Shown here: in pieces, positions 6,714-27,211 of the stretch
Position numbering within the stretch: position 1 is the first letter of the stretch
Layout: every line of letters starts with the position of its first letter
Assembly (NCBI RefSeq): GCF_001997385.1
Contig: NZ_CP019633.1
Coordinates: forward strand, 2,280,001-2,312,000
Direction: 5' to 3'
DNA from: Sedimentisphaera cyanobacteriorum
GTDB lineage: Bacteria > Planctomycetota > Phycisphaerae > Sedimentisphaerales > Sedimentisphaeraceae
DNA: 32,000 bases
Position numbers and translations under genes: made by a program
Notes under the pieces: generated by a model
Seen by the model: only the letters and a program-made list of their open reading frames with translations
Databases searched by the model: none
Told to the model about the DNA's origin: nothing

Positions 6714-8477
6714 ATGAAAAGATATTTTGCTGTTTTGCTTTTGCTCCTTAGCGGCGCAATTGCTCAGTCGGTCGATGTAATCAGCTATCAGGGCTACACA
6801 AGCAGGGCTGGAGCTGAGCTTGTCCAAGGCTCTCAGGGCACTCTTGCTGTTCAAGTTGAGTTTGAAGGCGATGAATACATTCATTACTACGCAGACGAAA
6901 ATACCGCTCCGGGCGGCTTAACACTTTCTGTTGCGCTTGCCGGCCCCGAGCTCTCAGCAGGCGGAGCTGTTTATCCCGAAACGAGCCTGTATATGGATAA
7001 GCAGGGCAAGAGCTATGAGGTTTATGAGGGCGATTTTTCCATCTATCTGCCCGTCAAAGAGAAGGCTGCAAACGCCGGCGTGGATGTAATAATCAAAGGG
7101 ATCGGCTGCGCAGGGGACACCTGCCTTCCTCCTTTCGAAAAAACAATCTCAGCAGAGCCCTCGGATAATCCGCAAACGCTCGATAAAGCCTTAACAGGCG
7201 AAAGGGGCTCAAAGCAAACTGAAACCGAAGCGGAAGAACCTGCGCAGAAGGCCGAGCCGTTTGAGCTTGGCGAGTTTCTTTTGTACTGCCTTTTGGCACT
7301 CGCAGCGGGGCTGAGCTTCAATGTTATGCCGTGCGTTTGGCCTGTGCTGCCGATTGCAGTGCAGAGGCTGGTTAATTTCGCAGGCCACGGCAGAAAGAAA
7401 CTCTTCGAGCAGGGGCTTGCGTATTCTTTGGGCATAATATCATTCTTTGCGATCTTCGCTGCTGCCGGGATAATAATCAAGCTCACAACGGGCAATGCCC
7501 TGAACTGGTCTGAGCATTTGCGGTATCCGCCTGTGCTTGTAACCACGGGGATGCTTCTTATAGTATTTGCGTTGTTTATGTTTGATGTGCTTTCTTTTGC
7601 TGTTCCTTCCTCGCTCTCAGGGGGCGGGCAGAAAAGCTCCGGCGGAGATCTTGCCGGCACAACCGTAATGGGATTTTTCGCTGCCCTTCTCAGCACGCCC
7701 TGCAGCGGTGCGATTCTTGCAGCGGTTTTCCTCTGGGCGCAAACGCAGACCCTCGCAGTAAGCACGGTGATAATCCTGCTTCTCGGCGTTGGAATGGCAA
7801 TACCGTACTTCCTGCTTGTAAACTTCCCCGCTCTTCTCGAAAAGCTGCCCAAGCCCGGGGCCTGGATGGAAAAATTCAGAAACGCAATGGGTTTCCTTCT
7901 GCTTTTTATCGCCGTGAAGCTGCTCGTCTCGCTCAACGCAGAGATGCTTTCCAAAGCGCTTACTTATGCAGTTATTCTGAGCTTTGCGGTTTGGATGTTC
8001 GGAAGCTGGGTAAACTTTACCACACCGAAGCGGAAAAAGATGATTGTCCGCGGGATAGCGGCCTTGATAGCAGCTGTTCCTGCGTTTATGATTTTCTCCT
8101 CAGGCGATAAGCTCATAGACTGGCAGCCCTACAGCACAGCCAAGATTCAGCAGAAGACAGAACAGCAAACGCCGGTGCTGATAAAATTTACCGCTGACTG
8201 GTGCACGAACTGCCATATTCTCGACAGTCAGGTGTTTCAGGATGAGAAAATTGCATCAGCCCTCGAAGAGAAAAACGTATATCCTGTCCTCGCAGATACA
8301 ACGCTCAGCTCAAACCCAGCTACGGAAGCGCTGAAAGAGGAGTTTGGAGAATCAGGAAACGTTCCGCTTACGGTGGTTATCTCGCCGGACGGAGAAAGAA
8401 CCAAGCTTAGAGGAATTTACAGTAAGAAGGAGCTGCTGGAAGTGTTGAACAATTTCAGCAAACAGCAAGATGGATAA
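6714..8477 (+). CDS. dsbD: Thiol:disulfide interchange protein DsbD (three-domain)
   Basis: Signal peptide. The nDsbD-like cysteine pair GCAGDTCLPP resembles E. coli GCADAGFCYPP. The polytopic TM core carries MPCVWPVLP and STPCSGAIL. The C-terminal thioredoxin motif is WCTNCH. Confidence 0.85.
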   Translation: MKRYFAVLLLLLSGAIAQSVDVISYQGYTSRAGAELVQGSQGTLAVQVEFEGDEYIHYYADENTAPGGLTLSVALAGPELSAGGAVYPETSLYMDKQGKSYEVYEGDFSIYLPVKEKAANAGVDVIIKGIGCAGDTCLPPFEKTISAEPSDNPQTLDKALTGERGSKQTETEAEEPAQKAEPFELGEFLLYCLLALAAGLSFNVMPCVWPVLPIAVQRLVNFAGHGRKKLFEQGLAYSLGIISFFAIFAAAGIIIKLTTGNALNWSEHLRYPPVLVTTGMLLIVFALFMFDVLSFAVPSSLSGGGQKSSGGDLAGTTVMGFFAALLSTPCSGAILAAVFLWAQTQTLAVSTVIILLLGVGMAIPYFLLVNFPALLEKLPKPGAWMEKFRNAMGFLLLFIAVKLLVSLNAEMLSKALTYAVILSFAVWMFGSWVNFTTPKRKKMIVRGIAALIAAVPAFMIFSSGDKLIDWQPYSTAKIQQKTEQQTPVLIKFTADWCTNCHILDSQVFQDEKIASALEEKNVYPVLADTTLSSNPATEALKEEFGESGNVPLTVVISPDGERTKLRGIYSKKELLEVLNNFSKQQDG

Positions 8478-9150
8478 TAGCGGTAATAATAAAATACTGA
8501 ATGAAGAAACATGGCGCATTTTCCGAATAATGGCGGAATTCGTAGAGGGCTTTGAGGAGATGAGCAGAACTGGGCCGGCAGTTTCAGTTTTCGGCTCGGC
8601 AAGGGCAGACGCCGGCAATGAATACTATCAGCTCGCAGAGCAGACATCAGCTATGCTCGCAAAGGCAGGATTCACAGTGATTACAGGCGGAGGCGGCGGG
8701 ATTATGGAGGCCGCAAACAAAGGCGCCTTCGAGGCCGGAGGCGAAACGATAGGCCTGAATATTGAGCTCCCGCACGAGCAGAAGCCGAATGAGTATCTAA
8801 CGCGAGGCTTGAGCTTCCGTTATTTCTTCTGCAGGAAGGTTATGTTCCTCAAATACGCAAACGGGTTCGTTGTTTTCCCAGGCGGCTTCGGAACTATGGA
8901 CGAGGTGTTCGAATCTCTCGTGCTTATACAGACATACAAACAGGCATACTTCCCTGTGGTGCTTATGGGCAAAGATTTCTGGCAGGATATGCTCGACTGG
9001 ATGATAGAGAAAATGTGCAAAGCGCACGAATTTATAACGCCGGAAGATATAGACTTTATAGACCTCACCGACGACCCGCAGGAAACTCTGGATATCCTCC
9101 TGAAATTCCACAGAAGACACGGGACAGGCCCCCTCCAGCCTATAAAGTAA
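8470..9150 (+). CDS. LOG family / TIGR00730 Rossmann-fold protein (cytokinin riboside 5'-monophosphate phosphoribohydrolase-like)
   Basis: Motifs GGGGGIMEAANKGA and PGGFGTMDEVFE. The ATG overlaps the dsbD stop (ATGGATAA, 8-nt overlap), which suggests translational coupling. Confidence 0.85.
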   Translation: MDNSGNNKILNEETWRIFRIMAEFVEGFEEMSRTGPAVSVFGSARADAGNEYYQLAEQTSAMLAKAGFTVITGGGGGIMEAANKGAFEAGGETIGLNIELPHEQKPNEYLTRGLSFRYFFCRKVMFLKYANGFVVFPGGFGTMDEVFESLVLIQTYKQAYFPVVLMGKDFWQDMLDWMIEKMCKAHEFITPEDIDFIDLTDDPQETLDILLKFHRRHGTGPLQPIK

Positions 9151-9831: not shown

Positions 9832-9867
9832 TTCGCAAATTCGCACTCCGTTTCGCCAAATCTGAGG
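9832..9867 (+). promoter_or_regulatory. Degenerate copy of the tandem TTCGYAAAATGGGG motif (site D)
   Basis: TTCGCAAATTCGCA, then TTCGCCAAATCTGAGG, with half-sites starting 20 nt apart. It ends 95 nt upstream of the pseudopilin-like gene at 9962. Only a partial match to the consensus of sites A-C. Confidence 0.25.
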
Positions 9868-9961
9868 TTACAAATTGGTGGAAAAAATGTTAAAATTGGC
9901 GTTTAAAAACCTTGCTTTTGAGTTATAATAGCCTTTATGTTTATTGTTGAAAGGTGAAAAA

Positions 9962-10837
9962 ATGAAAAAGGCTTTTACTTTAATAGAGCTTTTGGTTGTT
10001 ATATCAATCATAGCCCTTTTGATGGCTATCCTTATGCCCGCTTTGGGCAGGGCCAGAGAGCAGGCTAAAAACGTTGTATGCAAGACGAATATGCACGGCG
10101 CTGTTGTCGGTCTGAACGCATACCACGCCGACAACTACGACTACCCCAAGCACCCCTGCGCTCACGTGCGTCCGAATGCCCTCGCAAGAAACAAAACCTA
10201 CAACCCCCAGGACCCCGAAAACAGCGATACTTACACCTACAAGTATCTGAAGGGCTATATTGATGATGTGGGCGTGTTTAACTGTCCTCTTTCGGGATTT
10301 GATGAAACAGATATTGCTATGAATGCAGGCGGCGAGCCGCTTACATATCAGGAGGCCTACCAGAACAAAAACGACTGGTTCCATAAGTCGAACAACAAAA
10401 TCCTGAACTGCTCATACGCACTGTACTGGAACTACAAGCCGTATAAAAACAATCCGGGCGGGTTTGAAGGCCCGGGCAAGAGCTCCCAGTCCCAGTCCAG
10501 CCTGCTGATAAGCGACTACTTCGCATACTACAATCAGCTCAGGCCGTCCCAGAGCTGGGTTTGCACTCACAAGCTCGAGGGCGGCTCGCTTACCCGTTCA
10601 GACGGAATGCCCTATTACGCCCTGAAAGATGAAAGCCCCGGGCAGTGGGTTACTACTGATTCGGAGGGATTTACAGTGCTGAAAGAAAACTCGCCTTTTG
10701 ATGATATCAAGCTAAACTGCGGCTACACCGACGGGAGCGTGAAATCTATCAAGGGCAGCGATACTATGAGGCAGAGGGCATACGCAGGCGCGGATGCATG
10801 GTGCGAGCACTTTATGCCCTCAAAGAGGCGCTGGTAG
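9962..10837 (+). CDS. Prepilin-type N-terminal cleavage/methylation domain protein (pseudopilin-like, DUF1559-like)
   Basis: MKKAFTLIELLVVISIIALLMAILMPALGRAREQAK is a class III signal with the conserved Glu at +5. The C-terminal CGYTDGSVKSI resembles a degenerate H-X9-DG motif. The ATG at 9962 is preceded by AGGTGA, so I prefer it to the TTG at 9944. Confidence 0.85.
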   Translation: MKKAFTLIELLVVISIIALLMAILMPALGRAREQAKNVVCKTNMHGAVVGLNAYHADNYDYPKHPCAHVRPNALARNKTYNPQDPENSDTYTYKYLKGYIDDVGVFNCPLSGFDETDIAMNAGGEPLTYQEAYQNKNDWFHKSNNKILNCSYALYWNYKPYKNNPGGFEGPGKSSQSQSSLLISDYFAYYNQLRPSQSWVCTHKLEGGSLTRSDGMPYYALKDESPGQWVTTDSEGFTVLKENSPFDDIKLNCGYTDGSVKSIKGSDTMRQRAYAGADAWCEHFMPSKRRW

Positions 10838-10914
10838 GATTATAAGCCACCCGATTTATCTCTCAAGCAGCTGAAAAACAAATAATCCTATTGAGGCAGG
10901 ATTTGCAGCTGTCT

Positions 10915-10950
10915 TTCGCAAAATGGGGAATTGTTTTTCGCAAATTAGGG
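10915..10950 (+). promoter_or_regulatory. Tandem direct-repeat motif (site A)
   Basis: TTCGCAAAATGGGG-aattgttt-TTCGCAAATTAGGG, followed by TTGT. It ends 91 nt upstream of the Tat-FAD oxidoreductase start. Confidence 0.5.
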
Positions 10951-11040
10951 TTGTGCCTTTGAAGTTCGCCATTATATTAGAGGCCTGTTATTAAACAGCA
11001 AATTGTTTATTTTAACTGAATCTCAGCGGGAAAAACGGAT

Positions 11041-12837
11041 ATGATAAAAAGACGGGATTTCTTAAAGGCCTCAGCCGCAGCGGGCATTTCATTGAATTTC
11101 AGCCAGCCAGCCGCTTTTGGCGATTCTGATAAAAGCTCACTTCTGATTGAAGCAGTGCAGTTTGACAATACTGGCGGATGGAAGATTGATACGCAGTTCC
11201 ACAACACTCTGGGCTTCAGTTATTTGCTTGCCCACGGGATGGGCAGCCCTGTGAAAAACGCTCAAACAAAAGCCCTATTTAAGAAAGCCGGTTTGTATAA
11301 TGTCTGGGTGCATACAAAAGACTGGTGCCCGGGAAATTGGCACGCACCGGGCAGATTTAAGCTTAAGGTTGGCGGGGAATACCTAAACGAGATTTTCGGA
11401 AATAAACCCGGATGGAAATGGCATTACGGCGGGAAGATTCAAATCAGGCAGGGCGAAGCTCTTGTGGAGCTGGAAGACCTTACCGGCTTTGACGGGCGGT
11501 GTTCGGCGGTGTATTTCACTCAGGATGATAATGAAACGCCTCCGAATGATAGAGAAAAACTGCTCCGCTGGAGGCTTAATAAGAATGCAGGAGCTAAGGC
11601 GGCTGAAAAGAAAAAGTTTGATGTTGTTATAGCAGGCGGCGGTATAAGCGGCTGCGCAACGGCATTGGCCGCTGAATCTCAAGGCCTGAAGACTGCGTTA
11701 ATTCACAACAGACCCGTGCTGGGCGGGAACGCCAGCGGGGAGATTCGTGTTCATACATTAGGCCTCCACGGGAATGCCGGAGATATATTAAGCAAGATCG
11801 ATACCGAGCATTATCCCAACGGCTCAGAGAAGGCTTTTCACGATGACCGAAAACGCACGAAAAATATGAATGAAGCCGAAGGGGTATCCCAGTTTCTTAT
11901 GCACACGCTGATTTCAGCAGATTCACAAGGGGGCGAAATAAAATCAATTCAGGCCTTCGAGCATTTAACAGGCAGAAGAACGATTTTCGAGGCAGAGGTT
12001 TTCATAGACTGCACAGGCGATGGATGGCTCGGCCGGCTTGCAGGGGCAGATTGGGTTTACGGCCGCGAGCCGGAATCTAAATACAGCGAAGGCTGGGATA
12101 AGCACGGCGATTTGTGGTGTCCTGAGAAGGCGGATAATCGGGTGATGGGGACGAGCGTTTTATGGAACACTGAAAAGGGAAGCGAAGAAGTTCAGTTTCC
12201 GGAAGTTCCTTGGGCAATGCCCGTTGCAAAAGACCACACCTCTCCCAGCGGCGAGTGGTACTGGGAATATTCGCATAACAGCCTCAATCAGATCAGCGAT
12301 GCAGAACAGATACGAGACCATTTCTTCCGAGCTATATACGGCACATATTCAAACACAATCAAGCAGGACAAGCACAAAAAAAGAAGGCTCAAGTGGGTTG
12401 GGTACAATGCGGGGAAACGAGAATCTGCACGCCTGCTCGGGGATTATATCTACACGGGCAATGATGCGTTTGAGTCGAAAAAATTCAATGATGCGGTTGC
12501 GGTGGAGAAGCGCTCGATTGATGTTCATTATCAGCGATCGCTCACCGGCTCTAAGTATGATTTTCTCTCTGAGGCAATCTACCGAAAGCCTAAAGAGAAA
12601 TTTTATTACATCCCCTTCCGCAGTCTTTATTCTCGGAATATAGGCAATCTTATGATGGCAGGCAGATGCTTCAGCTGCTCGCACATCGGCCTTGGCGGGC
12701 CGCGTGTTATGAACACCTGCGGACAGATGGGGGCTGCTGCGGGATTTGCTGCTGCTCTGTGCAGAAAATTCGATAAATCCCCAAGGCAGGTTGGCAAAGA
12801 CCATATCGGAGAGCTTAGGAAGCTGTGCAAATTTTAG
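11041..12837 (+). CDS. Tat-exported FAD-dependent oxidoreductase with an N-terminal beta-sandwich-like domain
   Basis: Twin-arginine signal MIKRRDFLKASAAAGISL. A ~190-aa N-terminal domain precedes the dinucleotide-binding motif DVVIAGGGISGCATALAAE and RPVLGGNASGEIRVH. This is a paralog of the 20086 gene (shared GKRES.R..GDY and AGR..S.SH blocks). Confidence 0.8.
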   Translation: MIKRRDFLKASAAAGISLNFSQPAAFGDSDKSSLLIEAVQFDNTGGWKIDTQFHNTLGFSYLLAHGMGSPVKNAQTKALFKKAGLYNVWVHTKDWCPGNWHAPGRFKLKVGGEYLNEIFGNKPGWKWHYGGKIQIRQGEALVELEDLTGFDGRCSAVYFTQDDNETPPNDREKLLRWRLNKNAGAKAAEKKKFDVVIAGGGISGCATALAAESQGLKTALIHNRPVLGGNASGEIRVHTLGLHGNAGDILSKIDTEHYPNGSEKAFHDDRKRTKNMNEAEGVSQFLMHTLISADSQGGEIKSIQAFEHLTGRRTIFEAEVFIDCTGDGWLGRLAGADWVYGREPESKYSEGWDKHGDLWCPEKADNRVMGTSVLWNTEKGSEEVQFPEVPWAMPVAKDHTSPSGEWYWEYSHNSLNQISDAEQIRDHFFRAIYGTYSNTIKQDKHKKRRLKWVGYNAGKRESARLLGDYIYTGNDAFESKKFNDAVAVEKRSIDVHYQRSLTGSKYDFLSEAIYRKPKEKFYYIPFRSLYSRNIGNLMMAGRCFSCSHIGLGGPRVMNTCGQMGAAAGFAAALCRKFDKSPRQVGKDHIGELRKLCKF

Positions 12838-12967
12838 CCTTCAATACTCTTCTCGATACACGTATATAGCCGGCAAAGCCTGCACACTTTCTCATTCTGT
12901 TTGAATCTAACACTTCCTGCGGGGTATCCCTGCTGAGTTGATACTCCAAGTTTGCGCTTTTTGATTC

Positions 12968-13002
12968 TTCGTAAAATGGTGAATTATTTTCGCAAAATGG
13001 GG
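12968..13002 (+). promoter_or_regulatory. Tandem direct-repeat motif (site B)
   Basis: TTCGTAAAATGGTG-aattatt-TTCGCAAAATGGGG, followed by TTTT. It ends 295 nt upstream of the PEP-CTERM gene start. Confidence 0.55.
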
Positions 13003-13296
13003 TTTTATTACAAGAAAATTATGCAATCATATTATTTAAGTTTTGCTGAATGATTAAAGAAAGGTTTAGAGCTATAAACAATAATCCGGAAATTGAAAAA
13101 ATAGGTGTCAGGATAAATGGAAGTTCGGGTTGTTGTCAGCCTTTTATGTTAAAAGCCCTTAGTGATATTCCCTTTCACCGCAAATCTGAGCGGTAAGAAG
13201 CTGATGAACGCCCTTTCTGAATGCGTTCGGTGCGGGAATTTTTGTGTTTCTCATTAAAGAGTATTTTGTTATGTTAAATTTTTAAGGTGTTAGATT

Positions 13297-14184
13297 ATGA
13301 TGACGAAAAAGCTTTTCAAAAATTGTTTTCTGATTGTTAGTTTCATTTCTTTGAGTATTTGCGGCAGAGCTTACGGCTTGGCTGATGTTATTGAAACATT
13401 TAATGACTATCAGACCGGTGATTTGCGTGATACTTCCGGCAAAGGCACTGGATTTTCGAGTGAGGCTGATACATGGGAGGCTAATACAAGCCATTACAAA
13501 GCGAGGGAGGATGATCTATCTGCGCCGGCGGAAACCGGCTATGCCCTCGAGCAGAGCGGAACTGCTCAGAGCGTTCAAGGGCAGTCAACTAACCAGCGCC
13601 GTCAAAGCAGAAGACTTGATCACGAAGAGCTTGTAGGTACAAGCTGGTTTTCCTTTTTAGTGAAGAACACTAAATCTACTCAGATTGCAGGAATTGATTT
13701 TTACGACGGTTCATATTACGACAGCTACCATGTGGATAAGGCAAGGGAAATTTCCCTGCGGGGGACGAGCCTTTATGTTGAAGGAAGCGGCGGTACAGGT
13801 GAAAGCGGTATTGACGTAAGCAGCAAGACCTCTCTGAATGAAAACGCTTTAATACTCGGGAAATTTATGCCAAATGGCCTTTCCGAATCTGCTAATCTTC
13901 AGGTTTGGGTGAACCCTGATGTTTCTAATGACGCCGCCGGCCTTGGCACGCCCGATTTCGAGCAGCTCAGCGACCTTGGCTGGGGCAATATGGACAGGCT
14001 GAAAAATCTCGGCCTTCTCGCCTATGATACCGAAGGCAGCTGGGGCGGCCAGATTGATTCTTTGTATATCAGCAATGAAACTTCGGCTTTTCAGGATGTT
14101 ACCGGTGTACCTGAACCTGCCGCTTTAACCCTCTTAGCTCTGGGCGGTCTGGCGTTAAGGAGAAGGCAGAAACTTCGATCTTAA
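13297..14184 (+). CDS. Secreted PEP-CTERM-anchored protein carrying the shared N-terminal module
   Basis: Signal peptide MMTKKLFKNCFLIVSFISLSICGRAYG. The C-terminus VPEPAALTLLALGGLALRRRQKLRS is a PEP motif, a hydrophobic helix and a basic tail. The body is ~60% identical by eye to residues ~28-270 of the 17675 product. Confidence 0.8.
   Translation: MMTKKLFKNCFLIVSFISLSICGRAYGLADVIETFNDYQTGDLRDTSGKGTGFSSEADTWEANTSHYKAREDDLSAPAETGYALEQSGTAQSVQGQSTNQRRQSRRLDHEELVGTSWFSFLVKNTKSTQIAGIDFYDGSYYDSYHVDKAREISLRGTSLYVEGSGGTGESGIDVSSKTSLNENALILGKFMPNGLSESANLQVWVNPDVSNDAAGLGTPDFEQLSDLGWGNMDRLKNLGLLAYDTEGSWGGQIDSLYISNETSAFQDVTGVPEPAALTLLALGGLALRRRQKLRS
13939..13986 (+). repeat. 48-nt stretch identical to 18311..18358
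   Basis: GGCCTTGGCACGCCCGATTTCGAGCAGCTCAGCGACCTTGGCTGGGGC occurs in both paralogs and encodes GLGTPDFEQLSDLGWG. Confidence 0.9.
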
Positions 14185-14352
14185 GGAATTGGAATCCTTC
14201 ATTATTATTTTCCATATTTCCAAAACTGATTTGCTTGAGAATTAACGGAGAATAATAAAAAACATTTAAGGCTGCTTGTTAAAATGCTTTCAATCTTTTT
14301 TGCATGAATAGATTTACCAACCTGTAACTAAAAAAGCATTTCTTTTTCGGTC

Positions 14353-14387
14353 TTCGTAAAATGGGGAATTATTTTCGCAATTTGGGG
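14353..14387 (+). promoter_or_regulatory. Tandem direct-repeat motif (site C)
   Basis: TTCGTAAAATGGGG-aattatt-TTCGCAATTTGGGG, followed by TTGT. It ends 108 nt upstream of the GTG start at 14495. Confidence 0.55.
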
Positions 14388-14494
14388 TTGTAGAAAAAAG
14401 TGATTATGCGAAGATACACTCGACGTATATTTGAATTGTTATCGCAGCGGCTTCAAAGCCGAGAATTAAAATTAAATTCTTAAAAGGAGAAATT

Positions 14495-15307
14495 GTGAAA
14501 AATAGGAAAAATCGAACTTCCGGTTTTACTCTTATTGAACTGCTTGTTGTTATTTCCATCATCGCTTTGCTCATGTCAATTCTTATGCCTGCTCTAAATA
14601 AGGCCCGCGAACAGGCCCGCAATGTTGTATGCCAGAGCAATGTAAAGCAGTGGGGGCTTATTTTCAGTATGTACACCGATGACAGCGACGGATATTTCCC
14701 CGCAGATTGTCATAAAGATGACGGCAGATGGACGTGGTTTTTATCAATGAAGCCCTATTATGCGGGCAAATTTGAGATTCTTCTGTGTCCGACAACCAAG
14801 GCCGCTCCGGAAGACAGAGGGGGGAGGCTGAATAACCGCTGGCAGTGGAACGTCCGCTGGTGGACCCCGAACGTTTTTGAGACAGAGATGCTGGAAGACA
14901 GAGATGCCGAAGAGCTTGGAGGCAGCTATGGACAGAACTGGTGGGTTACGAGCAATGATTCATGGACTGCTACCTACCCTACAGAGAATAAATTCAAGCG
15001 GGTTGACAATGTTCAAAAGCCCTCTTCTGTTCCTGTAATCGGAGACTGCGGTTCGTTTGTGGTTCGCCCTACCAGATTTGCAGATCCTCCCGAAAGCGAC
15101 GGTGATTACTCTTATGAAAGCTCTAATGAGATGAAGCGTGTTTGCACGAATCGTCATAACAACGGCCGGGTTAACTGGGTTTTCGCAGACTTTTCCGTTC
15201 AGCAGGTTAAGCTCAAAGAGCTTTGGGATATACCTTGGCACCGCAAATGGAAGCCGAGGGAAGATGAGATCGAATGGCCGGACTGGATGCGTTCTCTGCC
15301 GGAATGA
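14495..15307 (+). CDS. Prepilin-type N-terminal cleavage/methylation domain protein (pseudopilin-like, DUF1559-like)
   Basis: GTG start preceded by AAAGGAGA. NRTSGFTLIELLVVISIIALLMSILMPALNKAREQARN has the canonical G/FTLIE cleavage site. The C-terminal HNNGRVNWVFADFSV is a divergent H-X9-DG-like motif. Confidence 0.85.
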   Translation: MKNRKNRTSGFTLIELLVVISIIALLMSILMPALNKAREQARNVVCQSNVKQWGLIFSMYTDDSDGYFPADCHKDDGRWTWFLSMKPYYAGKFEILLCPTTKAAPEDRGGRLNNRWQWNVRWWTPNVFETEMLEDRDAEELGGSYGQNWWVTSNDSWTATYPTENKFKRVDNVQKPSSVPVIGDCGSFVVRPTRFADPPESDGDYSYESSNEMKRVCTNRHNNGRVNWVFADFSVQQVKLKELWDIPWHRKWKPREDEIEWPDWMRSLPE

Positions 15308-15380
15308 CTGCGTTTTTAAGGCTTTTCTCTAAATCAAAGAGTATTTTTTAATGTTAAATTATTTTTTAAGGCGGAAAATT

Positions 15381-17633
15381 ATGATGAAGAAATTTTTACT
15401 GTTGATGGTTGTGTCCATTATGTGTTTGGCCGGTACTTCTCAAGCACTTTTTGTGATGGATAATTTTAATGAGCTTGATGTGGCAGAGATGCGCTGGACT
15501 GCATCCGACAGCGGCGTTGGTTTTGCCCCAGGCTCGGGCTGGCACGTTAATACCTCCACGATTCGTTTGCGGGATCGGGATCTGACAGCTCCTTCAAGTA
15601 CCAACTTCGGCTTAACCCAGACAGGAAATACACGTCTTGTTCAGGGTACTTATGAGGGCGAGCGTCAGCAGGCCCGTCAAATAGCCGAATTGATGGACGG
15701 GACAGTTTGGTTCAGCTTCTTGTACAAGCATGTTTCCGAAGGTTCCGGAGGCGGCCTTGGTTTCAACAGAAGCGGCTATTCCACAACCGCTCCGAGGGTT
15801 ATTGCTGATCAGGGCGATTTGATACTGGATTTCTCTGAGGATGAGTATGATGTAGTTTTATCCGATGTTTTGAACGCGGGAGAAACCTATCTGATTGTTG
15901 GAAGGATTGAAGTTGATGCCGGCGATAACGGCGAAGATTATGTTTCAGTTTGGCTGAATCCCGATGTAACCAATCCGGGCATGGCAGCAGCGTCTCAAAG
16001 CGGGGCAGATTTCGTAGGCGACGGCATTGATTATTTGTGTCTGCCCAGTTTTTACACAGGCAGTATAAACGTCGGCGGGGAGATAGATATGGTGTATGCA
16101 AGCAATGATGCTGATGCATACAAAGATGTTACCGGAGCGGATTATCCATCGTATGCCTACAGCCCAACCCCTTCAAATGGGCAGAATGGCGTTGGAGAAG
16201 TAACAGATTCACAGGTTGAGCTTACCCTTTCCTGGAAAACCGGCGCCGACCCTGATGGAGTGGAAGATTATGACCCGAGGATAAAGAAGCATTATGTTTA
16301 TCTAAACAGTGCGGATGAAATAGACCCCAACAACCCCGACCTGACACTGGTTGAAACAGTTTCAGTAACAGGTGCAGATGCCTCATCAAGCGTGCTTACC
16401 CTCGATTTAAACGGCCAATACTACTGGCTTGTTGAAGAGGGGCTGGAAGACGGACAGGGCGGAGTTTATCCTGCCGGGGATGAAAACAACTTTCAAGGAG
16501 AGCTTTGGTCTTTCCAAACAAAGGAAAGTGTTCCGGTAATCGAAGGCCAGCCTGAGGATCAGGTTGTGTTTGAGGGCGAAACAGCAAACTTTGAAATAAC
16601 AGCCGCTTCTGAAAAGCCAATAACGAATTATCAGTGGTATAAATCCACTGATGATACTAACCAAACACCTGCTGATGATACAGCTCTTGATTCAGGAGCT
16701 TCTCTTAATTTGATTGCTATTGAGAATGCAGCGGCTTCAGATGAGGGATACTACTATTGCGTGGTTTCAAACAGCGCAGGTGATAAAGCCTCGCAAACTG
16801 CAGTTTTAGGCCTCAAAAAGATTCTTGCACACTGGACTATGAACCAAAGCGATGTGCTTGGAGGTGAACTGCTGGATGTGCAAAGCGGAAATAATGCTGT
16901 AATTCAGGGAACGCCGGAATTTGCACAAGGGGCTGACGGCGCAGAAAACGGCGCTCTGGTTATCTCTGAAGACGTGTATGCTTCAGCTCCAGGGACTATA
17001 GACCCGCCATCTGATTTCGGAATGATGAGCTTGAGCGTCTGGGTAAACTGGCACGGGCCGTTAGGCTCTAATTACCAGAGGATTATCTCTAAATCCACAG
17101 ACAGCTGGTCGAGCACAAATTCCTCATGGACACTCGGTAATCAGGCTGGACAGCAGGGAAGCGGAAACATAAGCTACTATTCATACAATGCAGCGGGAAC
17201 CTCTTCAGCAGAGATGGTTAATGATCAGGCCGAATCCCCCGATACTTTCCAGCATTATGTCTTGGTTTATGACGGGCAGGAAGCTAAGACCTATTTTGAC
17301 GGACAGCTTGCTGCTGTGGATGAAATTGACGTGGCTGATTTCTACAATCAAGCCGCTGCTGCTGCGCCAATTGCAATTGGTGCCGGATACGCAGATGACG
17401 GGGCTCACCGATTCAACGGTGCACTGGATGATATTCGGATCTACAACTACAGCCTCTCTGCAGATGAGGTAGGAGACCTCTATTATGATGTAACTGGAGA
17501 GCCGGCATGTGTTTATCCAGTTGAATACGGCGATTATGACAACGACTGCGATGTAGATGTTGCAGATTTGATGATTTTTATTATGAACGGTTGGCTTGAC
17601 TGCGGTTTGTATCCAGAAGAAGGCTGCATGTAA
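15381..17633 (+). CDS. Secreted multidomain surface protein: shared N-module, Fn3-like, Ig-like, LamG (Laminin_G_3-like), 4-Cys dockerin-like tail
   Basis: Signal MMKKFLLLMVVSIMCLAGTSQA. The Ig-like block is YQWYK...DEGYYYCVVSNSAGD. The LamG-type ending is FNGALDDIRIYNYSLSADEVGDLYYDV. The tail is GDYDNDCDVDVADLMIFIMNGWLDCGLYPEEGCM. I prefer the start at 15381 because the leader is conserved with the 13297 gene, where the equivalent upstream ATG hits a stop after 4 codons. Confidence 0.8.
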   Translation: MMKKFLLLMVVSIMCLAGTSQALFVMDNFNELDVAEMRWTASDSGVGFAPGSGWHVNTSTIRLRDRDLTAPSSTNFGLTQTGNTRLVQGTYEGERQQARQIAELMDGTVWFSFLYKHVSEGSGGGLGFNRSGYSTTAPRVIADQGDLILDFSEDEYDVVLSDVLNAGETYLIVGRIEVDAGDNGEDYVSVWLNPDVTNPGMAAASQSGADFVGDGIDYLCLPSFYTGSINVGGEIDMVYASNDADAYKDVTGADYPSYAYSPTPSNGQNGVGEVTDSQVELTLSWKTGADPDGVEDYDPRIKKHYVYLNSADEIDPNNPDLTLVETVSVTGADASSSVLTLDLNGQYYWLVEEGLEDGQGGVYPAGDENNFQGELWSFQTKESVPVIEGQPEDQVVFEGETANFEITAASEKPITNYQWYKSTDDTNQTPADDTALDSGASLNLIAIENAAASDEGYYYCVVSNSAGDKASQTAVLGLKKILAHWTMNQSDVLGGELLDVQSGNNAVIQGTPEFAQGADGAENGALVISEDVYASAPGTIDPPSDFGMMSLSVWVNWHGPLGSNYQRIISKSTDSWSSTNSSWTLGNQAGQQGSGNISYYSYNAAGTSSAEMVNDQAESPDTFQHYVLVYDGQEAKTYFDGQLAAVDEIDVADFYNQAAAAAPIAIGAGYADDGAHRFNGALDDIRIYNYSLSADEVGDLYYDVTGEPACVYPVEYGDYDNDCDVDVADLMIFIMNGWLDCGLYPEEGCM

Positions 17634-17674
17634 ATTAAGCTGATGAGTAAAATCAATACAGAAAGGAAATTATT

Positions 17675-19954
17675 ATGAATAAAAAGCATACGAAAAAGTG
17701 TTTCCTCTTTTGCGCAGTCTTGTGTCTGGTTCTTTCGGGAACTCTTTACGGGCAGGCGGATGTAATAGCGACATTTAATGATATGACCACAGGCGGTATG
17801 CGGGAGAACGACGGTCAGCCGGCCGGTACTGGTGTTGGCTTTTCAACAGATTACTGGCAGGCAAATACATCTCACTGCAAAGTAAGGGAAGATAACCTTG
17901 CTGCACCTTCAAGCACCGGTTATTCGATTGTGCAGACTGGCACAGCTCAGTGCGTGCAGGTGCAGTCGATACACCAGAGAAGGCAGTATCGCGAGCTGAT
18001 ACATGAAAATCTCGTTGGCAGCTGCTGGATATCATTTCTTGCTAAAAATACAAAATCAACGAATGTTACCGGAATTGATTTTGATGAATATGTCAGCTAC
18101 TGGGTAAATAAAGACAGGGAAATCTCGCTTCGCGGGACAAACCTGTATGTTCAAGGCAGCGGGGGCACCGGCTCCGGCGGGATCGACGTTAGCAGTAAAT
18201 ACGCAATTGGCGAGACAGCCTTGGTTCTCTGCAAGTTTATGCCGAATGCGTATTCATCTCCTGCCCACCTGCAGGTTTGGGTGAATCCAAATACTGCAAA
18301 CGGTCCGGACGGCCTTGGCACGCCCGATTTCGAGCAGCTCAGCGACCTTGGCTGGGGCGAAATGGACAGGCTGAAAGGTCTCGGCCTGCTAGCCTATGAT
18401 ACCGACGACCACTGGGGCGGCCTGATAGATGCTGTATATATCAGCCAAGGTGATGATGCATTCTACGATGTGGTTGGCGTAAATCTCAATGCTTATTCCC
18501 CAAGTCCTGAAAGCGGAGAAGAAGGCGTGGGTGTTAAGAATAACGGTAATGTCGATGTTACCCTCGAATGGAAAACCGGAAGAGATGACAGCACCTCTGA
18601 CCCGCAGCCGTATAACCCTGATATCAAAAAACATTATCTTTATATGAGCAGCGGCGTGGAAGGTGATACTGACCTCGAACTTAAAGCCTCCCTTGATGTA
18701 ACCGGCCTTAATGAATCCTATTCGACAACTCTCAATCTTGACGGAAAATACTACTGGCTTATCGAAGAAGGCCTTGATGACGGCACAGGTTCAGCGAATC
18801 CTCCGGGCGACCCGAACAACTATGTAAGCGCAGTTTGGGAGTTTGAAACATTAAAGAGTGTGCCTGTGGTAACAGCTCAGCCGGAAGATGTGTTTGTTGG
18901 TATTGGAGATACTGCTGAGCTGAGCGTTAGCGTGTCCACTATGTCAAGCGAAAGCTATCAGTGGTATAAATCTCTGGATGATGCCGTTGATACTGGCGAA
19001 GATGATTCATTAATAGCCGGCGCTGATTCAAACACCTTAACAGTGTACTCTGCAGCTGTTGAGGATGAGGCATACTATTACTGCGAAATTACCAACAGCA
19101 GCGGCACAACCGTTTCTGATACAGCATCTCTGGGAGTAAAGAGACTGATGGCTAAGTATTCAATGGATCAGGCCGATTATGATGGAAGCTCCTATCTTGA
19201 CTCAAGCCCTGAAGATGGAACTGCACATGATGCACAGCTGGTAGGCGAAGTGGATGTCCAGTTTGTAACAGGAGCTGACGGCACGCCAAACGGTGCTGTT
19301 AAGATTGATCCTAACAGTGTTGCAAATGCAGGCACTTGGAATCCCTCAGAATTCAGCAATGAGCTTACTGCTGCTTTCTGGGTTGAATGGGACGGCGTAA
19401 GCGATGTTCGTCAGGGCTATCTGGGCAAATCGGTTGACTTGAATGCCGGAAATATGTGGTTTATCCGCGGTCAGTATGTCAGCAGTACAAGTATGAAGTT
19501 GATGAGAAACGGCAGCTACGGGCCTGCAGCAGGACCTTTGACTGATGATAACCAGTGGCAGTTTGTAGCGTTTACCGTCTCAGATAATAACGCAAACTGC
19601 TATGTGAATGGAATTAACAGCGGCACTTCCGATTTTACTTTAGGCTCAGACCCTGAAGACCTTGCAGCCCCTATCTGGATAGGGCGATTTAGTGAACTCT
19701 CGCCTGAAAGGATTGCGAACGCTTCTATGGATGATGTTCGAATCTACAATTACGCCCTGAGCCCGGAAGAGATTGCTCAGCTGTATTACGATGTATCAGG
19801 AGAGCCGATTTGCATAGACCCCCCAGACCCCGCTTACGATTTGAGCGGACCTGAAGGTATGCCGGACTGTAAGGTTGATATGTATGATTTTGTTCAAATC
19901 GCAAAAAAATGGTTTGAATGCGGCCTTTATCCGGCCTCCTTATGCTTTGAATGA
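17675..19954 (+). CDS. Secreted multidomain surface protein, paralog of 15381 (shared N-module, Fn3-like, Ig-like, LamG, 4-Cys tail)
   Basis: Signal MNKKHTKKCFLFCAVLCLVLSGTLYG. The Ig-like block is YQWYK...DEAYYYCEITNSSGT. The LamG-type ending is MDDVRIYNYALSPEEIAQLYYDV. The tail is DCKVDMYDFVQIAKKWFECGLYPASLCFE. Confidence 0.8.
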   Translation: MNKKHTKKCFLFCAVLCLVLSGTLYGQADVIATFNDMTTGGMRENDGQPAGTGVGFSTDYWQANTSHCKVREDNLAAPSSTGYSIVQTGTAQCVQVQSIHQRRQYRELIHENLVGSCWISFLAKNTKSTNVTGIDFDEYVSYWVNKDREISLRGTNLYVQGSGGTGSGGIDVSSKYAIGETALVLCKFMPNAYSSPAHLQVWVNPNTANGPDGLGTPDFEQLSDLGWGEMDRLKGLGLLAYDTDDHWGGLIDAVYISQGDDAFYDVVGVNLNAYSPSPESGEEGVGVKNNGNVDVTLEWKTGRDDSTSDPQPYNPDIKKHYLYMSSGVEGDTDLELKASLDVTGLNESYSTTLNLDGKYYWLIEEGLDDGTGSANPPGDPNNYVSAVWEFETLKSVPVVTAQPEDVFVGIGDTAELSVSVSTMSSESYQWYKSLDDAVDTGEDDSLIAGADSNTLTVYSAAVEDEAYYYCEITNSSGTTVSDTASLGVKRLMAKYSMDQADYDGSSYLDSSPEDGTAHDAQLVGEVDVQFVTGADGTPNGAVKIDPNSVANAGTWNPSEFSNELTAAFWVEWDGVSDVRQGYLGKSVDLNAGNMWFIRGQYVSSTSMKLMRNGSYGPAAGPLTDDNQWQFVAFTVSDNNANCYVNGINSGTSDFTLGSDPEDLAAPIWIGRFSELSPERIANASMDDVRIYNYALSPEEIAQLYYDVSGEPICIDPPDPAYDLSGPEGMPDCKVDMYDFVQIAKKWFECGLYPASLCFE
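18311..18358 (+). repeat. 48-nt stretch identical to 13939..13986
   Basis: Same 48-mer as in the PEP-CTERM paralog. Identity remains about 90% over 112 nt (18311..18422 against 13939..14050). Confidence 0.9.
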
Positions 19955-24339: not shown

Positions 24340-27201
24340 ATGAACAAGACTGGTCTGAAGATAATACTGCTTGCATCTCTATGCGGTGCGGCATTCTCCG
24401 CTGAGCTGAAAAATGATGCTTATACTGTCCAAACGCTCGATCAGAGCAGGGTCGAACTGAGGCATAAAGATGCCGGCGTATGGGATTTAGAGATGCGGTT
24501 TTGCGTGCTCTTTACAGATAAAAATCCAAGACCTGCCTCGCGTCCGGGTGAAGTGCCGAATGTGAAGTACAATGTAGTTACATGGGAGAATAAGAGCCTT
24601 GAATCAGGTGCCGGGCTGGATTCAAGCCAGAGTGATTATTTGGCTGTAGGCGACGGATTCGATCCGAGCATACTTGAGGGCTCAAGGGACAGCCGTACCG
24701 CAAATCTCTTTTATGCCGCTCCGCAGGTGTCCGTTTCGGCTGAACGGATGGTGCACAGGGGCTCTTCGATTATATACGTTTTCCCCGAGCACCCCTTGTT
24801 TACTCTTCGCGCGAGGCTTAAAATCACAGAGGGTGATGCCCCGCCGGCTTTGGAATATAGCTTTACGCCGAAAAAGGACGGCTATTACTCTGTAGGATAT
24901 GCGGGCTCACCGGAATACCAGCTGGAAGAGCTTGATGAGATTTGGCAGCCGCTGCTCTGGCAGGAAAAGCGCTTCCCAAATAAGCCCTTTATGACAATGG
25001 CGTATCGCTGCACAATCCCCTCAGCTCTGATAACTAAAAACGGCAGTACTTTCGGGATGGTTGTTGACCCGGAGGAATATCCGTTTGAAGAGCTTCCCGT
25101 GTTTGATAATTCGCGGTTCGGGGTTGCCGTGCGGAATAAAGAGGGGCTCGCTGAGCCGATGGTTTTTGCGCCGGTGCTTGGCGGTATTAATTCCAAGATG
25201 AAGGCCGGGCAGAGCTTTTCATTCTCGCTCCGCCCTACTGCTGTTAAAGGCAGAACAACCGAAGCATTTGAATATATAGCCCGCAGGCTTTACGGCTTTG
25301 ATAACTACAGGAAAAATTCAATCTGTACTTTGAATCAGACGCTGGAAAATATGATTGATTACGGTATGAGCCGCTGGAGCCGTTTTCTGGAAGACCAGAA
25401 GGGCTGCAGCTATGCTACCGATGCGCCCGGAACGGTGAAAAACGTTTCTTCCCTGAATCCGCTTGAGCTGGCTATTGCTGCAGATAATGAAGAAATTTTC
25501 AAACGCAGGGCATATCCTTATATAGAGTATATGCTGTCTCGAAAGAAATTCCTGTTTACCACAAACGAAAAGCAGAAAATTCAAAGGCCTTCATACACAC
25601 TTGAAGGCCCCTGCGCCCCGATTTCTGAGCTTAGTTCATTGTTCGGCATTTTCGAAGAGGCAACGCCGGCGTTCAAGGAGCTTGCTGTTCAGGAATTTCA
25701 CCGCAGCCGAGTTCGAAATCTGGATGTTCAGCAGTCTGGAAAAAGCTGGGAGAATGCACTTTTCCTGTACGAGGCAGTGAAAGACAGAAAATATCTCGAT
25801 TTTGCAAAAAGCAGAGCGGATGAATATATAAAGCAAAGGGTTGAAAAGCCCCAGACTGCTTTTGACGACCCTCAGGCAGGTGCATTTTTCTTTTGGACAG
25901 CCTTCACCCCGAAGTTTATTCAATTGCTTGAGCTGTATGAGGTTACTAAAGAACAAAGGTATCTGGAGGCTGCGCATGAAGGGGCAAGAAGGTTTACCCA
26001 GTTTACTTGGATGAGTCCAAAAATCCCCGAGAGAGATATTCTCGTGAACGAGGGGGGCAAGGCCCCGCTGTACTGGTACTTAAAGAGCAAAGGCCATAAG
26101 CAGATGTATATTCCCGAAGAAAAAGTCCCGGCCTGGCGGCTCTCCTCCATCGGTCTTACCCCGGAGTCCACAGGTACCTGCACAGGCCATCGTGCGATTT
26201 TTATGGCCAATTATGCCCCTTGGCTGATTCGTATCGGCTATTACACAGACGATTCATTCCTCAGGGAAGTGGGGCGTTCTGCGATTGTCGGGCGATACTG
26301 CAGCTTCCCGGGATACCACATCAATACGGCAAGAACCACTGCCTATGAAAAGCCCGATTATCCTCTGCGCGAGCACAAGGAGCTCAGCGTGAATTCCTTT
26401 CATTACAATCACATCTGGCCTATGATGTCGATGCTTCTGGATTATCTGGTTACAGAGACTATGGCTCGTTCGGATAAACAGATCGATTTCCCATCTCACT
26501 TTATAGAAGGCTATGCCTACCTTCAGAATAAGTTTTACGGCACTCAGAAGGGACGTTTCTATGATTATCAGGACGCTGTGCTGTGGATGCCGAGCGGACT
26601 GCTGGACGTTGATAATGTTGAGATTAACTATATCTCGGCTAGAGGGGATAATGCCCTGTATTTGGCTTTTCTGAACGAATCGGATAAGCAGGCAGAAGGC
26701 AGGGTATCGCTGAATCAGGAGCTTGTTTCATTAGACAGCTGCAAAGTCCGGCTGCTGAGTGCAGGCGGGAAAGCCTCTAAGGAGATCTCTTCCGGGGATT
26801 TCGATATTAAAATTCCTCCCAGAGGGCTCACGGCAGTTGCGATAGAAGGCGCTGAAATCCAAACACGTTTTCAGCATAAGGTGATGGGGGTAACCGCTGA
26901 GGATGCTTGGGATAAAGGGTTTGTCGAATTTGACAGTCCTGCAGGCAGGGCTGCGGTTCTCAATCTCGGGAAAGCAGCGAAAACTGTATATGTCTATCTC
27001 AAAGACAGCAAGGAAGATTTCCGTAATGTCGATATGATTTATGATGACGGCTCGGGCAAAAACAGAATCCAAGACGATTCTTTCCCATGGGAGTTCACTG
27101 TCCCGATTGATTCGGCTCTCAGCAGCTTCAGCTTCGTTATTGAAGGCAGCGGGCAGGACGGTGAAAAGGTAATTTCAAAGGAATATTTATTGCAGAAGTA
27201 A
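24340..27201 (+). CDS. Large secreted protein of unknown family (possible glycan-active enzyme)
   Basis: The ATG lies 4 nt after the symporter stop. Signal MNKTGLKIILLASLCGAAFSA. 953 aa with no motif I can recognise. The only functional hint is its position between a sugar-type transporter and a multi-GH protein. Confidence 0.5.
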   Translation: MNKTGLKIILLASLCGAAFSAELKNDAYTVQTLDQSRVELRHKDAGVWDLEMRFCVLFTDKNPRPASRPGEVPNVKYNVVTWENKSLESGAGLDSSQSDYLAVGDGFDPSILEGSRDSRTANLFYAAPQVSVSAERMVHRGSSIIYVFPEHPLFTLRARLKITEGDAPPALEYSFTPKKDGYYSVGYAGSPEYQLEELDEIWQPLLWQEKRFPNKPFMTMAYRCTIPSALITKNGSTFGMVVDPEEYPFEELPVFDNSRFGVAVRNKEGLAEPMVFAPVLGGINSKMKAGQSFSFSLRPTAVKGRTTEAFEYIARRLYGFDNYRKNSICTLNQTLENMIDYGMSRWSRFLEDQKGCSYATDAPGTVKNVSSLNPLELAIAADNEEIFKRRAYPYIEYMLSRKKFLFTTNEKQKIQRPSYTLEGPCAPISELSSLFGIFEEATPAFKELAVQEFHRSRVRNLDVQQSGKSWENALFLYEAVKDRKYLDFAKSRADEYIKQRVEKPQTAFDDPQAGAFFFWTAFTPKFIQLLELYEVTKEQRYLEAAHEGARRFTQFTWMSPKIPERDILVNEGGKAPLYWYLKSKGHKQMYIPEEKVPAWRLSSIGLTPESTGTCTGHRAIFMANYAPWLIRIGYYTDDSFLREVGRSAIVGRYCSFPGYHINTARTTAYEKPDYPLREHKELSVNSFHYNHIWPMMSMLLDYLVTETMARSDKQIDFPSHFIEGYAYLQNKFYGTQKGRFYDYQDAVLWMPSGLLDVDNVEINYISARGDNALYLAFLNESDKQAEGRVSLNQELVSLDSCKVRLLSAGGKASKEISSGDFDIKIPPRGLTAVAIEGAEIQTRFQHKVMGVTAEDAWDKGFVEFDSPAGRAAVLNLGKAAKTVYVYLKDSKEDFRNVDMIYDDGSGKNRIQDDSFPWEFTVPIDSALSSFSFVIEGSGQDGEKVISKEYLLQK

Positions 27202-27211
27202 AGGTGTTTTT

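Follow-up and report, generated by a model that had tools for sequence, protein, structure and literature searches.

A conserved tandem direct-repeat motif, putatively cis-regulatory, at pseudopilin, LamG and oxidoreductase promoters of Sedimentisphaera cyanobacteriorum

In the planctomycete Sedimentisphaera cyanobacteriorum, a 32-kb stretch of DNA (contig NZ_CP019633.1, positions 2,280,001 to 2,312,000; hereafter the window, with positions counted from its first letter) carries a tandem direct repeat of 35-36 bp upstream of three, possibly four, adjacent transcription units, which together encode two pseudopilin-like proteins, two LamG/Ig proteins, a PEP-CTERM protein and an oxidoreductase dependent on flavin adenine dinucleotide (FAD) with a twin-arginine (Tat) signal. 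The question that this locus raises is whether the repeat is a regulatory element that these units share and, if so, what kind of factor reads it. An initial annotation had described the repeat as a cis-regulatory element at adjacent transcription units, and comparison with related loci bears this out: the repeat is kept at homologous genes in two other lineages, it is oriented to the gene, and it lies at a fixed distance from a -10-like hexamer. As far as sequence comparison goes, it is a real, conserved and newly seen cis-regulatory motif of a known kind.

The tandem motif in the window

The half-site is asymmetric, with the 14-bp consensus TTCG-YAAWWT-GGGG. Positions C3, G4, A6, A7, T10, G12 and G14 are invariant across all strong copies, so that the centre (A6, A7, T10) is kept along with the TTCG and GGGG boxes, which are 10 bp apart within the half-site. 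When the pattern TTCGYAAAWTGGGG was searched across the 32-kb window with at most one mismatch allowed, exactly six matches were obtained (starting at 10915, 10937, 12968, 12989, 14353 and 14374). All of them are intergenic, are located on the + strand and are arranged as three pairs with a period of 21-22 bp (sites A, B and C). The chance level for this search is 0.12 ± 0.33 matches, and none of 100 dinucleotide shuffles reached six. With three mismatches the pattern no longer exceeds chance (17 matches versus 11 expected), thus the signal is carried by strong half-sites only.

The looser tandem TTCGY-N15-17-TTCGY occurs five times in the window versus 0.8 expected, and the stricter tandem TTCGYAA...TTCGY(N)AA is restricted within the window to sites A, B and C and a fourth, degenerate site D. 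The half-sites of D score below 11 bits each on the half-site matrix; as one of only four such tandems in the window, D is not random. The four sites were recovered at the coordinates and with the sequences given in the initial annotation. Sites A, B and C occupy consecutive intergenic regions, and the four largest intergenic gaps of the window, only about 5% of which is intergenic by a count from the list of open reading frames (ORFs), are the homes of the four sites. The distance from the motif end to the start codon is 90 nt at A, 294 nt at B, 107 nt at C and 95 nt at D (taking the ATG at 9963), within one nucleotide of the range of 91-295 nt first reported. The earlier observation that the spacer (AATTRTT) and the 3' flank (GGGTTKT) are conserved holds within the window; across lineages only the TTGT part of the flank is kept. 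Also in agreement with that description, a scan with the half-site matrix found no copy of the motif upstream of the 20086 gene.

Conservation and promoter coupling in other lineages

We scanned one genome per species (185,579 species) for the tandem pattern, which carries ~46 bits and for which ~0.03 chance matches were estimated. Two loci were returned. The first (L001), a true relative, belongs to a Sedimentisphaerales metagenome-assembled genome of 65% guanine-plus-cytosine (GC) content and carries TTCGTAAAATGGGG-AAATATA-TTCGCAAATTGGGG-TTGTAG. Its site is intergenic and lies 412 nt upstream of a gene whose product matches LamG protein 1 of the window at 34% identity over 546 residues. The second (L002) is a 22-bp tandem array in a Pyrinomonadaceae genome.

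Six further loci (L008-L013), reached via homologues of LamG protein 1, are syntenic with the window, in particular with the operon downstream of site C. Their gene order is FAD oxidoreductase, pseudopilin, LamG, LamG, FAD oxidoreductase, a 580-aa protein, a symporter, a 939-aa protein and glycoside hydrolase family 97 (GH97), and their amino-acid identity to the window is 49% for LamG, 58% for pseudopilin and 54% for FAD oxidoreductase. These loci have the tandem twice in one divergent intergenic region, with each copy facing its own gene. The + strand copy begins 130 nt before the pseudopilin start, and the - strand copy points at a transposase-like fragment and then at the ortholog of the window FAD oxidoreductase (54% identity), which like its counterpart in the window is located downstream of a motif copy. 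In one more lineage (P0002, 52% identity; L014, L015) the contigs end before the upstream region.

In a multiple alignment of all sites, conservation is limited to both half-sites, the TTGT flank and, ~23 nt further on, a short patch that resembles a -10 element; the remaining intergenic DNA has diverged. Half-sites recur every 22 bp at A and every 21 bp at the other strong sites (B, C, L001 and both L008 copies), which equals two helical turns; the spacer of 7 nt (8 nt in A) is AT-rich and its sequence is not conserved between lineages. In 246 kb of related loci, half-sites scoring at least 15 bits occur as these tandem pairs only, and the motif is kept between genomes of 48% and 65% GC while the flanks diverge. 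Conservation at homologous promoters in three lineages, with an orientation that follows the gene, indicates that the motif is under selection.

The two L008 copies lie in the arms (7955-8102 and 8757-8904) of a 148-nt inverted repeat, 82% identical, which comprises promoter and leader. Between and beside the arms are apparent transposase fragments, recognized by eye (145-aa and 70-aa ORFs, the 145-aa ORF having no Pfam match). This arrangement suggests that the L008 promoter module was copied during a rearrangement.

The distance between the motif and a possible -10 element was examined by counting, at each offset of 1-99 nt after the motif and with a tolerance of ±1 nt, hexamers of the form nAnnnT with at least three of six matches to TATAAT. 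Such a hexamer is present at +23/+24 after the proximal GGGG in all six independent sites; the mean over the offsets is 1.4, and a count of six is reached at no other offset. The hexamer that directly follows the proximal GGGG is TTGTGC, TTGTAG, TTGTGT, TTTTAT or, at D, TTACAA. The position of the -10-like hexamer thus points to a weak -35 element (TTGTnn) at +1 to +6, with a 16-17 bp spacer and a 0-bp gap to the motif, and this predicted placement would put the half-sites at roughly -49 to -36 and -70 to -57. The L008 ortholog of the site C promoter reads TTGTGT-17 nt-GAAAAT, with a matching offset. Predicted promoters of the window are listed in Table 1.

In the long gap (13003-13296) between site B and the ATG of the PEP-CTERM gene (13297), a terminator-like hairpin with a T-run is found at 13127-13142. 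The L001 site has a long gap too (~377 nt), and no sequence shared between the long leaders of B and L001 was detected.

Regulatory readings of the motif

The best explanation of these observations as a whole, to which we assign a probability of roughly 0.55, is that the 35-36 bp block serves as a tandem activator site for a transcription factor whose gene lies outside this cluster, elsewhere in the genome. The two directly repeated 14-bp half-sites would be occupied by a pair of factor molecules or by a dimer. The conserved ends of each half-site are about one helical turn apart, and the 21-22 bp period would place both half-sites on the same face of the DNA. With the proximal half-site abutting the weak -35-like TTGTnn and the -10-like hexamer 16-17 bp later, the site would extend from about -70 to -36, and the protein bound there would bring RNA polymerase to, or hold it at, a promoter that is poor by itself (class II activation, sigma-70-type). 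The outcome would be co-induction of the pseudopilin/LamG-Ig operon, the PEP-CTERM gene and the Tat-FAD oxidoreductase gene of a glycan-utilisation cluster. The components of this explanation differ in strength. That the block is a transcription-factor site controlling these promoters is quite probable; that the bound protein activates is rather likely; and that it belongs specifically to the AraC/XylS family, presumably as a sensor of a carbohydrate, is a tentative assignment by analogy, at somewhat less than even odds.

AraC at araI1-I2 (pBAD) shows the same arrangement as XylS at Pm. In the latter, two 15-bp direct repeats each consist of box A (TGCA), 6 bp and box B (GGTA); a XylS monomer has two helix-turn-helix motifs, and the proximal site is bound first, followed by the distal one (PMC5481539). 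The motif described here is similar to Pm in that two direct repeats of ~15 bp recur with a 21-bp period and can be read as bipartite (TGCA-N6-GGTA for XylS, TTCG-N6-GGGG here), and it would be similar to the XylS and AraC sites in that the proximal site reaches the -35 element, here a predicted one, and drives a sugar or catabolic operon. Unlike those sites, it has an unrelated sequence, a central AAWWT that is also conserved, no adjacent AraC-family gene and a planctomycete host. Of the tandem-activator geometries put forward in the initial annotation, the AraC I1-I2 or XylS type is thus the best fit, whereas the OmpR/PhoB type had to be given up, since the block has no internal periodicity of 10-11 bp and its alternating 10-bp segments (TTCGCAAAAT and GGGGAATTATT) bear no relation to one another. 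A narrow search of the literature yielded no paper on a site of this type in Sedimentisphaerales.

Several points weigh against the tandem activator site. In agreement with the initial annotation, none of the 17 genes of the window encodes a regulator or DNA-binding domain; likewise no regulator gene was found in the 22-kb syntenic loci, and no HTH_18/AraC gene in either the window or L008-L013. The conservation of the half-site centre AAWWT, equal to that of the ends, is not required by the two-box AraC model. The assignment of -35 and -10 elements is a prediction in AT-rich DNA, with an ambiguous register at B and a weak -10 at C. Some within-genome copies are recent duplications (B and C, which share 100 nt at 71% identity, and the L008 arms), therefore the copy number in one genome overstates the independent evidence. 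A 21-bp direct-repeat period is likewise used by LytTR regulators, and a repressor could act just as well from a position next to the -35. Finally, the tandem motif is absent from the pseudopilin and FAD oxidoreductase promoters of Sedimentisphaera salicampi, the closest sequenced relative, in which the pseudopilin-1 and FAD oxidoreductase orthologs are located side by side and the latter is 80% identical to the window protein; thus, at least sites A and D are evolutionarily labile.

The two S. salicampi promoters differ in what is left. Upstream of the FAD oxidoreductase gene, pairwise alignment reveals unrelated sequence in place of the motif. Upstream of the pseudopilin gene, the block downstream of D is near-perfectly kept (TTACAAAT..GTGGAAAAAATGTTAAAATTGGCGTTT plus TATAAT) and the distal half-site is absent, which makes it doubtful that D is a full member of the motif. 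Of the four sites first proposed, A, B and C stand as real, conserved and promoter-coupled, while D does not stand with the same confidence. The kept block of ~40 nt (9866-9905 in the window, ~8853-8892 in the S. salicampi locus L020) is almost identical between the two species, the surrounding intergenic DNA being far less conserved, and it may be a core promoter or another conserved element. The sequence that replaces the motif at the FAD oxidoreductase promoter of S. salicampi (CP021023) includes a 15-mer, AATATTGTCGCACAC, of which a second copy is found at the GH127 promoter of this locus (L020 9891-9905 and 12877-12891). The 15-mer may be a separate operator, in which case regulation would have turned over between the sister species. 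The LamG homologues included no protein from S. salicampi, thus this species may lack the LamG operon altogether.

The alternative that fares best, although unlikely, retains the geometry and changes the binder, which would be a LytTR-domain regulator or another non-AraC tandem binder (SARP-type or LuxR/MalT-type). LytTR regulators recognize a pair of direct repeats that recur every 21 bp (9 bp plus a 12-bp spacer) just upstream of -35; the repeats are 9 bp long (up to 11), the non-conserved spacer is 11-13 bp and the distance from -35 is 4-11 bp. In a typical LytTR system the regulator gene adjoins the repeats and its operon is autoregulated (PMC6193735). The period of 21-22 bp and the promoter-proximal placement seen here are compatible with this arrangement, and the motif shares with the sites of AgrA, ComE and HdrR/BrsR a pair of direct repeats of 21-bp period immediately upstream of a (here predicted) -35. 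It differs in its conserved unit, which is 14 bp plus an AT-rich spacer of 7 bp (7-8 bp over all sites) rather than 9 + 12, in the gap between the proximal repeat and the -35-like hexamer, which is 0 bp instead of 4-11 bp, and in the downstream genes, which are not regulators, the window having no regulator gene beside the repeats.

According to a second alternative, a tandemly bound repressor at -35 would block RNA polymerase and be released by an inducer, for instance a product of glycan degradation. This is compatible with a site that touches the predicted -35, and the promoter block of D, kept in S. salicampi without the distal half-site, suggests that the promoter can exist free of the motif. 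The motif, however, never overlaps the -10 or the start region; direct repeats on one face that reach to about -70 are typical of activators; and the adjoining -35-like hexamers (TTGTGC, TTGTAG, TTTTAT and TTGTGT) are poor, which would be expected of activator-dependent promoters. Because of these weak -35 hexamers a repressor operator is less likely than activation, and we consider it improbable.

Recognition of the block itself by an alternative sigma factor, either sigma-54 or of the extracytoplasmic function (ECF) type, was the other possibility raised in the initial annotation, and it is now very unlikely. It is favored by the usual mode of control of this gene family: in three loci with more distant LamG homologues (L016, L017 and L018), the operons are located directly behind genes for an ECF sigma factor and a FecR-like anti-sigma factor. 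Moreover, the TGGGG-N-TTCGC junction can be read as GG-N10-GC at C and L001. Neither reading explains a 14-bp direct repeat, since separate domains of sigma recognize the -35 and the -10 element. Sigma-54 promoters have GG-N10-GC (TGGCAC-N5-TTGCW) at a fixed distance from the start; in the window, A has N11 instead and B has GGTG. TTCGC or AGCGC would have to act as the -12 element, and transcription would begin within the conserved proximal half-site. ECF promoters combine an AAC-type -35 with a CGT-type -10 over a 16-17 bp spacer, usually next to sigma and anti-sigma genes; here, the block has no signature of the GGAAC/CGT type, the window has no ECF gene, and no similar motif occurs upstream of the homologous ECF-linked operons. 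Both promoter readings were thus rejected on spacing and signature.

The ECF-linked loci of Sedimentisphaerales and other bacteria of the Planctomycetes-Verrucomicrobia-Chlamydiae (PVC) group have the same target families as the window, namely DUF1559 pseudopilin, LamG/Ig and PEP-CTERM proteins and carbohydrate-active enzymes (CAZymes). They have sigma and anti-sigma genes without the tandem motif, whereas the motif-bearing loci have neither gene, and in the few loci examined the two control schemes never occur together. The tandem motif is absent upstream of the LamG homologues in L016, L017 and L018, as well as in L019 (P0005, 38% identity) and L021-L024 (the P0019 and P0022 loci, of which L022 is labelled Verrucomicrobiales). 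The ECF sigma gene and the anti-sigma gene, whose FecR/NPCBM-like product has 555-566 aa, precede the LamG/Ig operon at L016 503-2726, L017 6928-9122 and L018 7658-9875. L016, a related LamG/GH43 locus, also encodes a regulator that combines a periplasmic-binding-protein domain with an AraC-type helix-turn-helix, which as context speaks for the tandem activator site. Upstream of its ECF sigma gene, at ~410-460, a direct repeat (GAATTCCGGCAG and GAAATTCCGACAG, ~30 nt apart) may be a regulatory repeat belonging to that locus.

The least probable alternative, either a transcribed leader element (protein-binding or structured RNA) or a dispersed or duplicated repeat without a regulatory role, would accord with a motif that is always on the coding strand, with copies that clearly stem from local duplication and with the lack of predicted terminators between the window genes, so that read-through transcripts would include the motif, but it is opposed by the absence of Rfam matches at gathering or E<=1 thresholds (leader B included), by folds that differ among five copies and lack significance (z-scores of +1.4 to -2.2, the fold of leader B not being unusual), by a 21-22 bp phasing that is kept despite a variable spacer, a property of duplex DNA, by the absence of matches in viral contigs, and by the nature of the tandem arrays found in metagenomes, which are unrelated multi-copy repeats in other contexts.

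The metagenome scan for the tandem returned only such multi-copy arrays with units of 20-22 bp (L003-L007). Together with the Pyrinomonadaceae array, they contain at least three repeats of 20-22 bp with TTCG[CT]AAnnTnGGG (L002 1297-1392; L003 14-48; L004 864-899, which equals L007; L005 569-645; L006 878-931). One of them is situated at the end of a Pyrinomonadaceae contig and another ~440 nt after a small ORF without a Pfam match, perhaps for a ribbon-helix-helix protein. They may be iterons or partition sites, and as homologues of the motif they were rejected: the query itself is tandem, so these were judged pattern-driven matches, and their GC contexts differ. An iteron or partition array, which needs at least three copies beside rep or par genes, was likewise rejected for the window motif, whose sites at four chromosomal promoters hold exactly two copies each.

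Gene content of the locus and biological implications

The features of the window that bear on the motif are collected in Table 1. Downstream of the LamG operon are genes for a second FAD oxidoreductase, a sodium:solute symporter and a GH127-like protein, followed by a GH97-CBM-dockerin-GH16 protein that runs off the window end.

Table 1. Motif half-sites, predicted promoters and associated genes in the window
Feature	Position	Strand	Sequence or description
Site A, distal half-site	10915..10928	+	TTCGCAAAATGGGG; 0 mismatches; 22.9 bits on half-site matrix
Site A, proximal half-site	10937..10950	+	TTCGCAAATTAGGG; 1 mismatch; 19.9 bits; 8-nt spacer, 22-bp period
Site B, distal half-site	12968..12981	+	TTCGTAAAATGGTG; 1 mismatch
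Site B, proximal half-site	12989..13002	+	TTCGCAAAATGGGG; 0 mismatches
Site C, distal half-site	14353..14366	+	TTCGTAAAATGGGG; 0 mismatches
Site C, proximal half-site	14374..14387	+	TTCGCAATTTGGGG; 1 mismatch; 3' flank TTGTAG identical to that of the L001 site
Site D, degenerate tandem (membership doubtful)	9832..9867	+	TTCGCAAATTCGCA, then CTCCGT, then TTCGCCAAATCTGAGG; 20-bp period
Predicted FAD oxidoreductase promoter	10951..10978	+	TTGTGC (10951-10956), 16-nt spacer, TATATT (10973-10978)
Predicted PEP-CTERM promoter, register ambiguous	13003..13035	+	TTTTAT + AATCAT (13025-13030), or ATTACA (13007)-17 nt-TATTAT (13030-13035)
Predicted pseudopilin2-LamG-LamG promoter	14388..14415	+	TTGTAG (14388-14393), 16-nt spacer, weak -10-like GAAGAT (14410-14415)
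Predicted promoter block downstream of D	9868..9929	+	TTACAA-17 nt-TAAAAT (9868-9896); TTTAAA-16 nt-TATAAT (9902-9929)
Pseudopilin-like gene 1, N-terminal methylation motif	9963..10837	+	PF07963; downstream of D
Tat-signal FAD-dependent oxidoreductase	11041..12837	+	PF12831; downstream of A
PEP-CTERM protein	13297..14184	+	Downstream of B
Operon downstream of C	14495..19954	+	DUF1559 pseudopilin 2 (14495-15307); LamG/Ig protein 1 (15351-17633); LamG/Ig protein 2 (17675-19954)

The body of the PEP-CTERM protein (13297-14184) and the N-terminal domain of LamG protein 2 (17675-18480) share 62% identity. Judging by this identity, the PEP-CTERM protein arose recently by partial duplication of a LamG/Ig protein, with a PEP-CTERM tail in place of the Ig/LamG part. 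The ribosome-binding region of the PEP-CTERM gene (13253-13308) resembles that of LamG gene 1 (15333-15392). At the end of the window, positions 27212-32000 form a single ORF of at least 1596 codons that has no stop codon within the window and runs past its end; it encodes GH97 (N, catalytic and C domains), CBM35/CBM6 and GH16, with a weak dockerin match below the Pfam cut-off. Treating 27200-32000 as non-coding is therefore wrong: the ORF list omits one long frame that lacks a stop in the window.

To our knowledge, transcriptional regulation in Planctomycetota, and especially in the anaerobic Sedimentisphaerales, is almost unmapped, and we know of no function assigned to the very large DUF1559 pseudopilin-like family. 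The motif does not overturn current understanding: it is an element of an ordinary kind, found in little-studied hosts. One conserved operator would tie a pseudopilin, two LamG/Ig surface proteins, a PEP-CTERM protein and a secreted FAD oxidoreductase to a single switch. It offers a concrete bait for finding the regulator and its inducer, as well as a potential inducible promoter module for a phylum whose genetic toolbox is small. The sister species without the motif, the ECF/FecR control in distant relatives and the duplication of the module together make a small case of regulatory rewiring of one cassette. In a bolder and improbable version, it can be speculated that a regulator type new to Planctomycetota uses the tandem motif as its operator. 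In one Sedimentisphaerales sub-lineage this operator would have replaced trans-envelope signalling by ECF sigma/FecR as the switch of the pseudopilin (DUF1559)-LamG/Ig-PEP-CTERM surface apparatus, and it would spread as a promoter module of ~150 nt that is copied to positions before new genes. If true, this would be the first defined regulon linking DUF1559 pseudopilins to a specific glycan-capture function.

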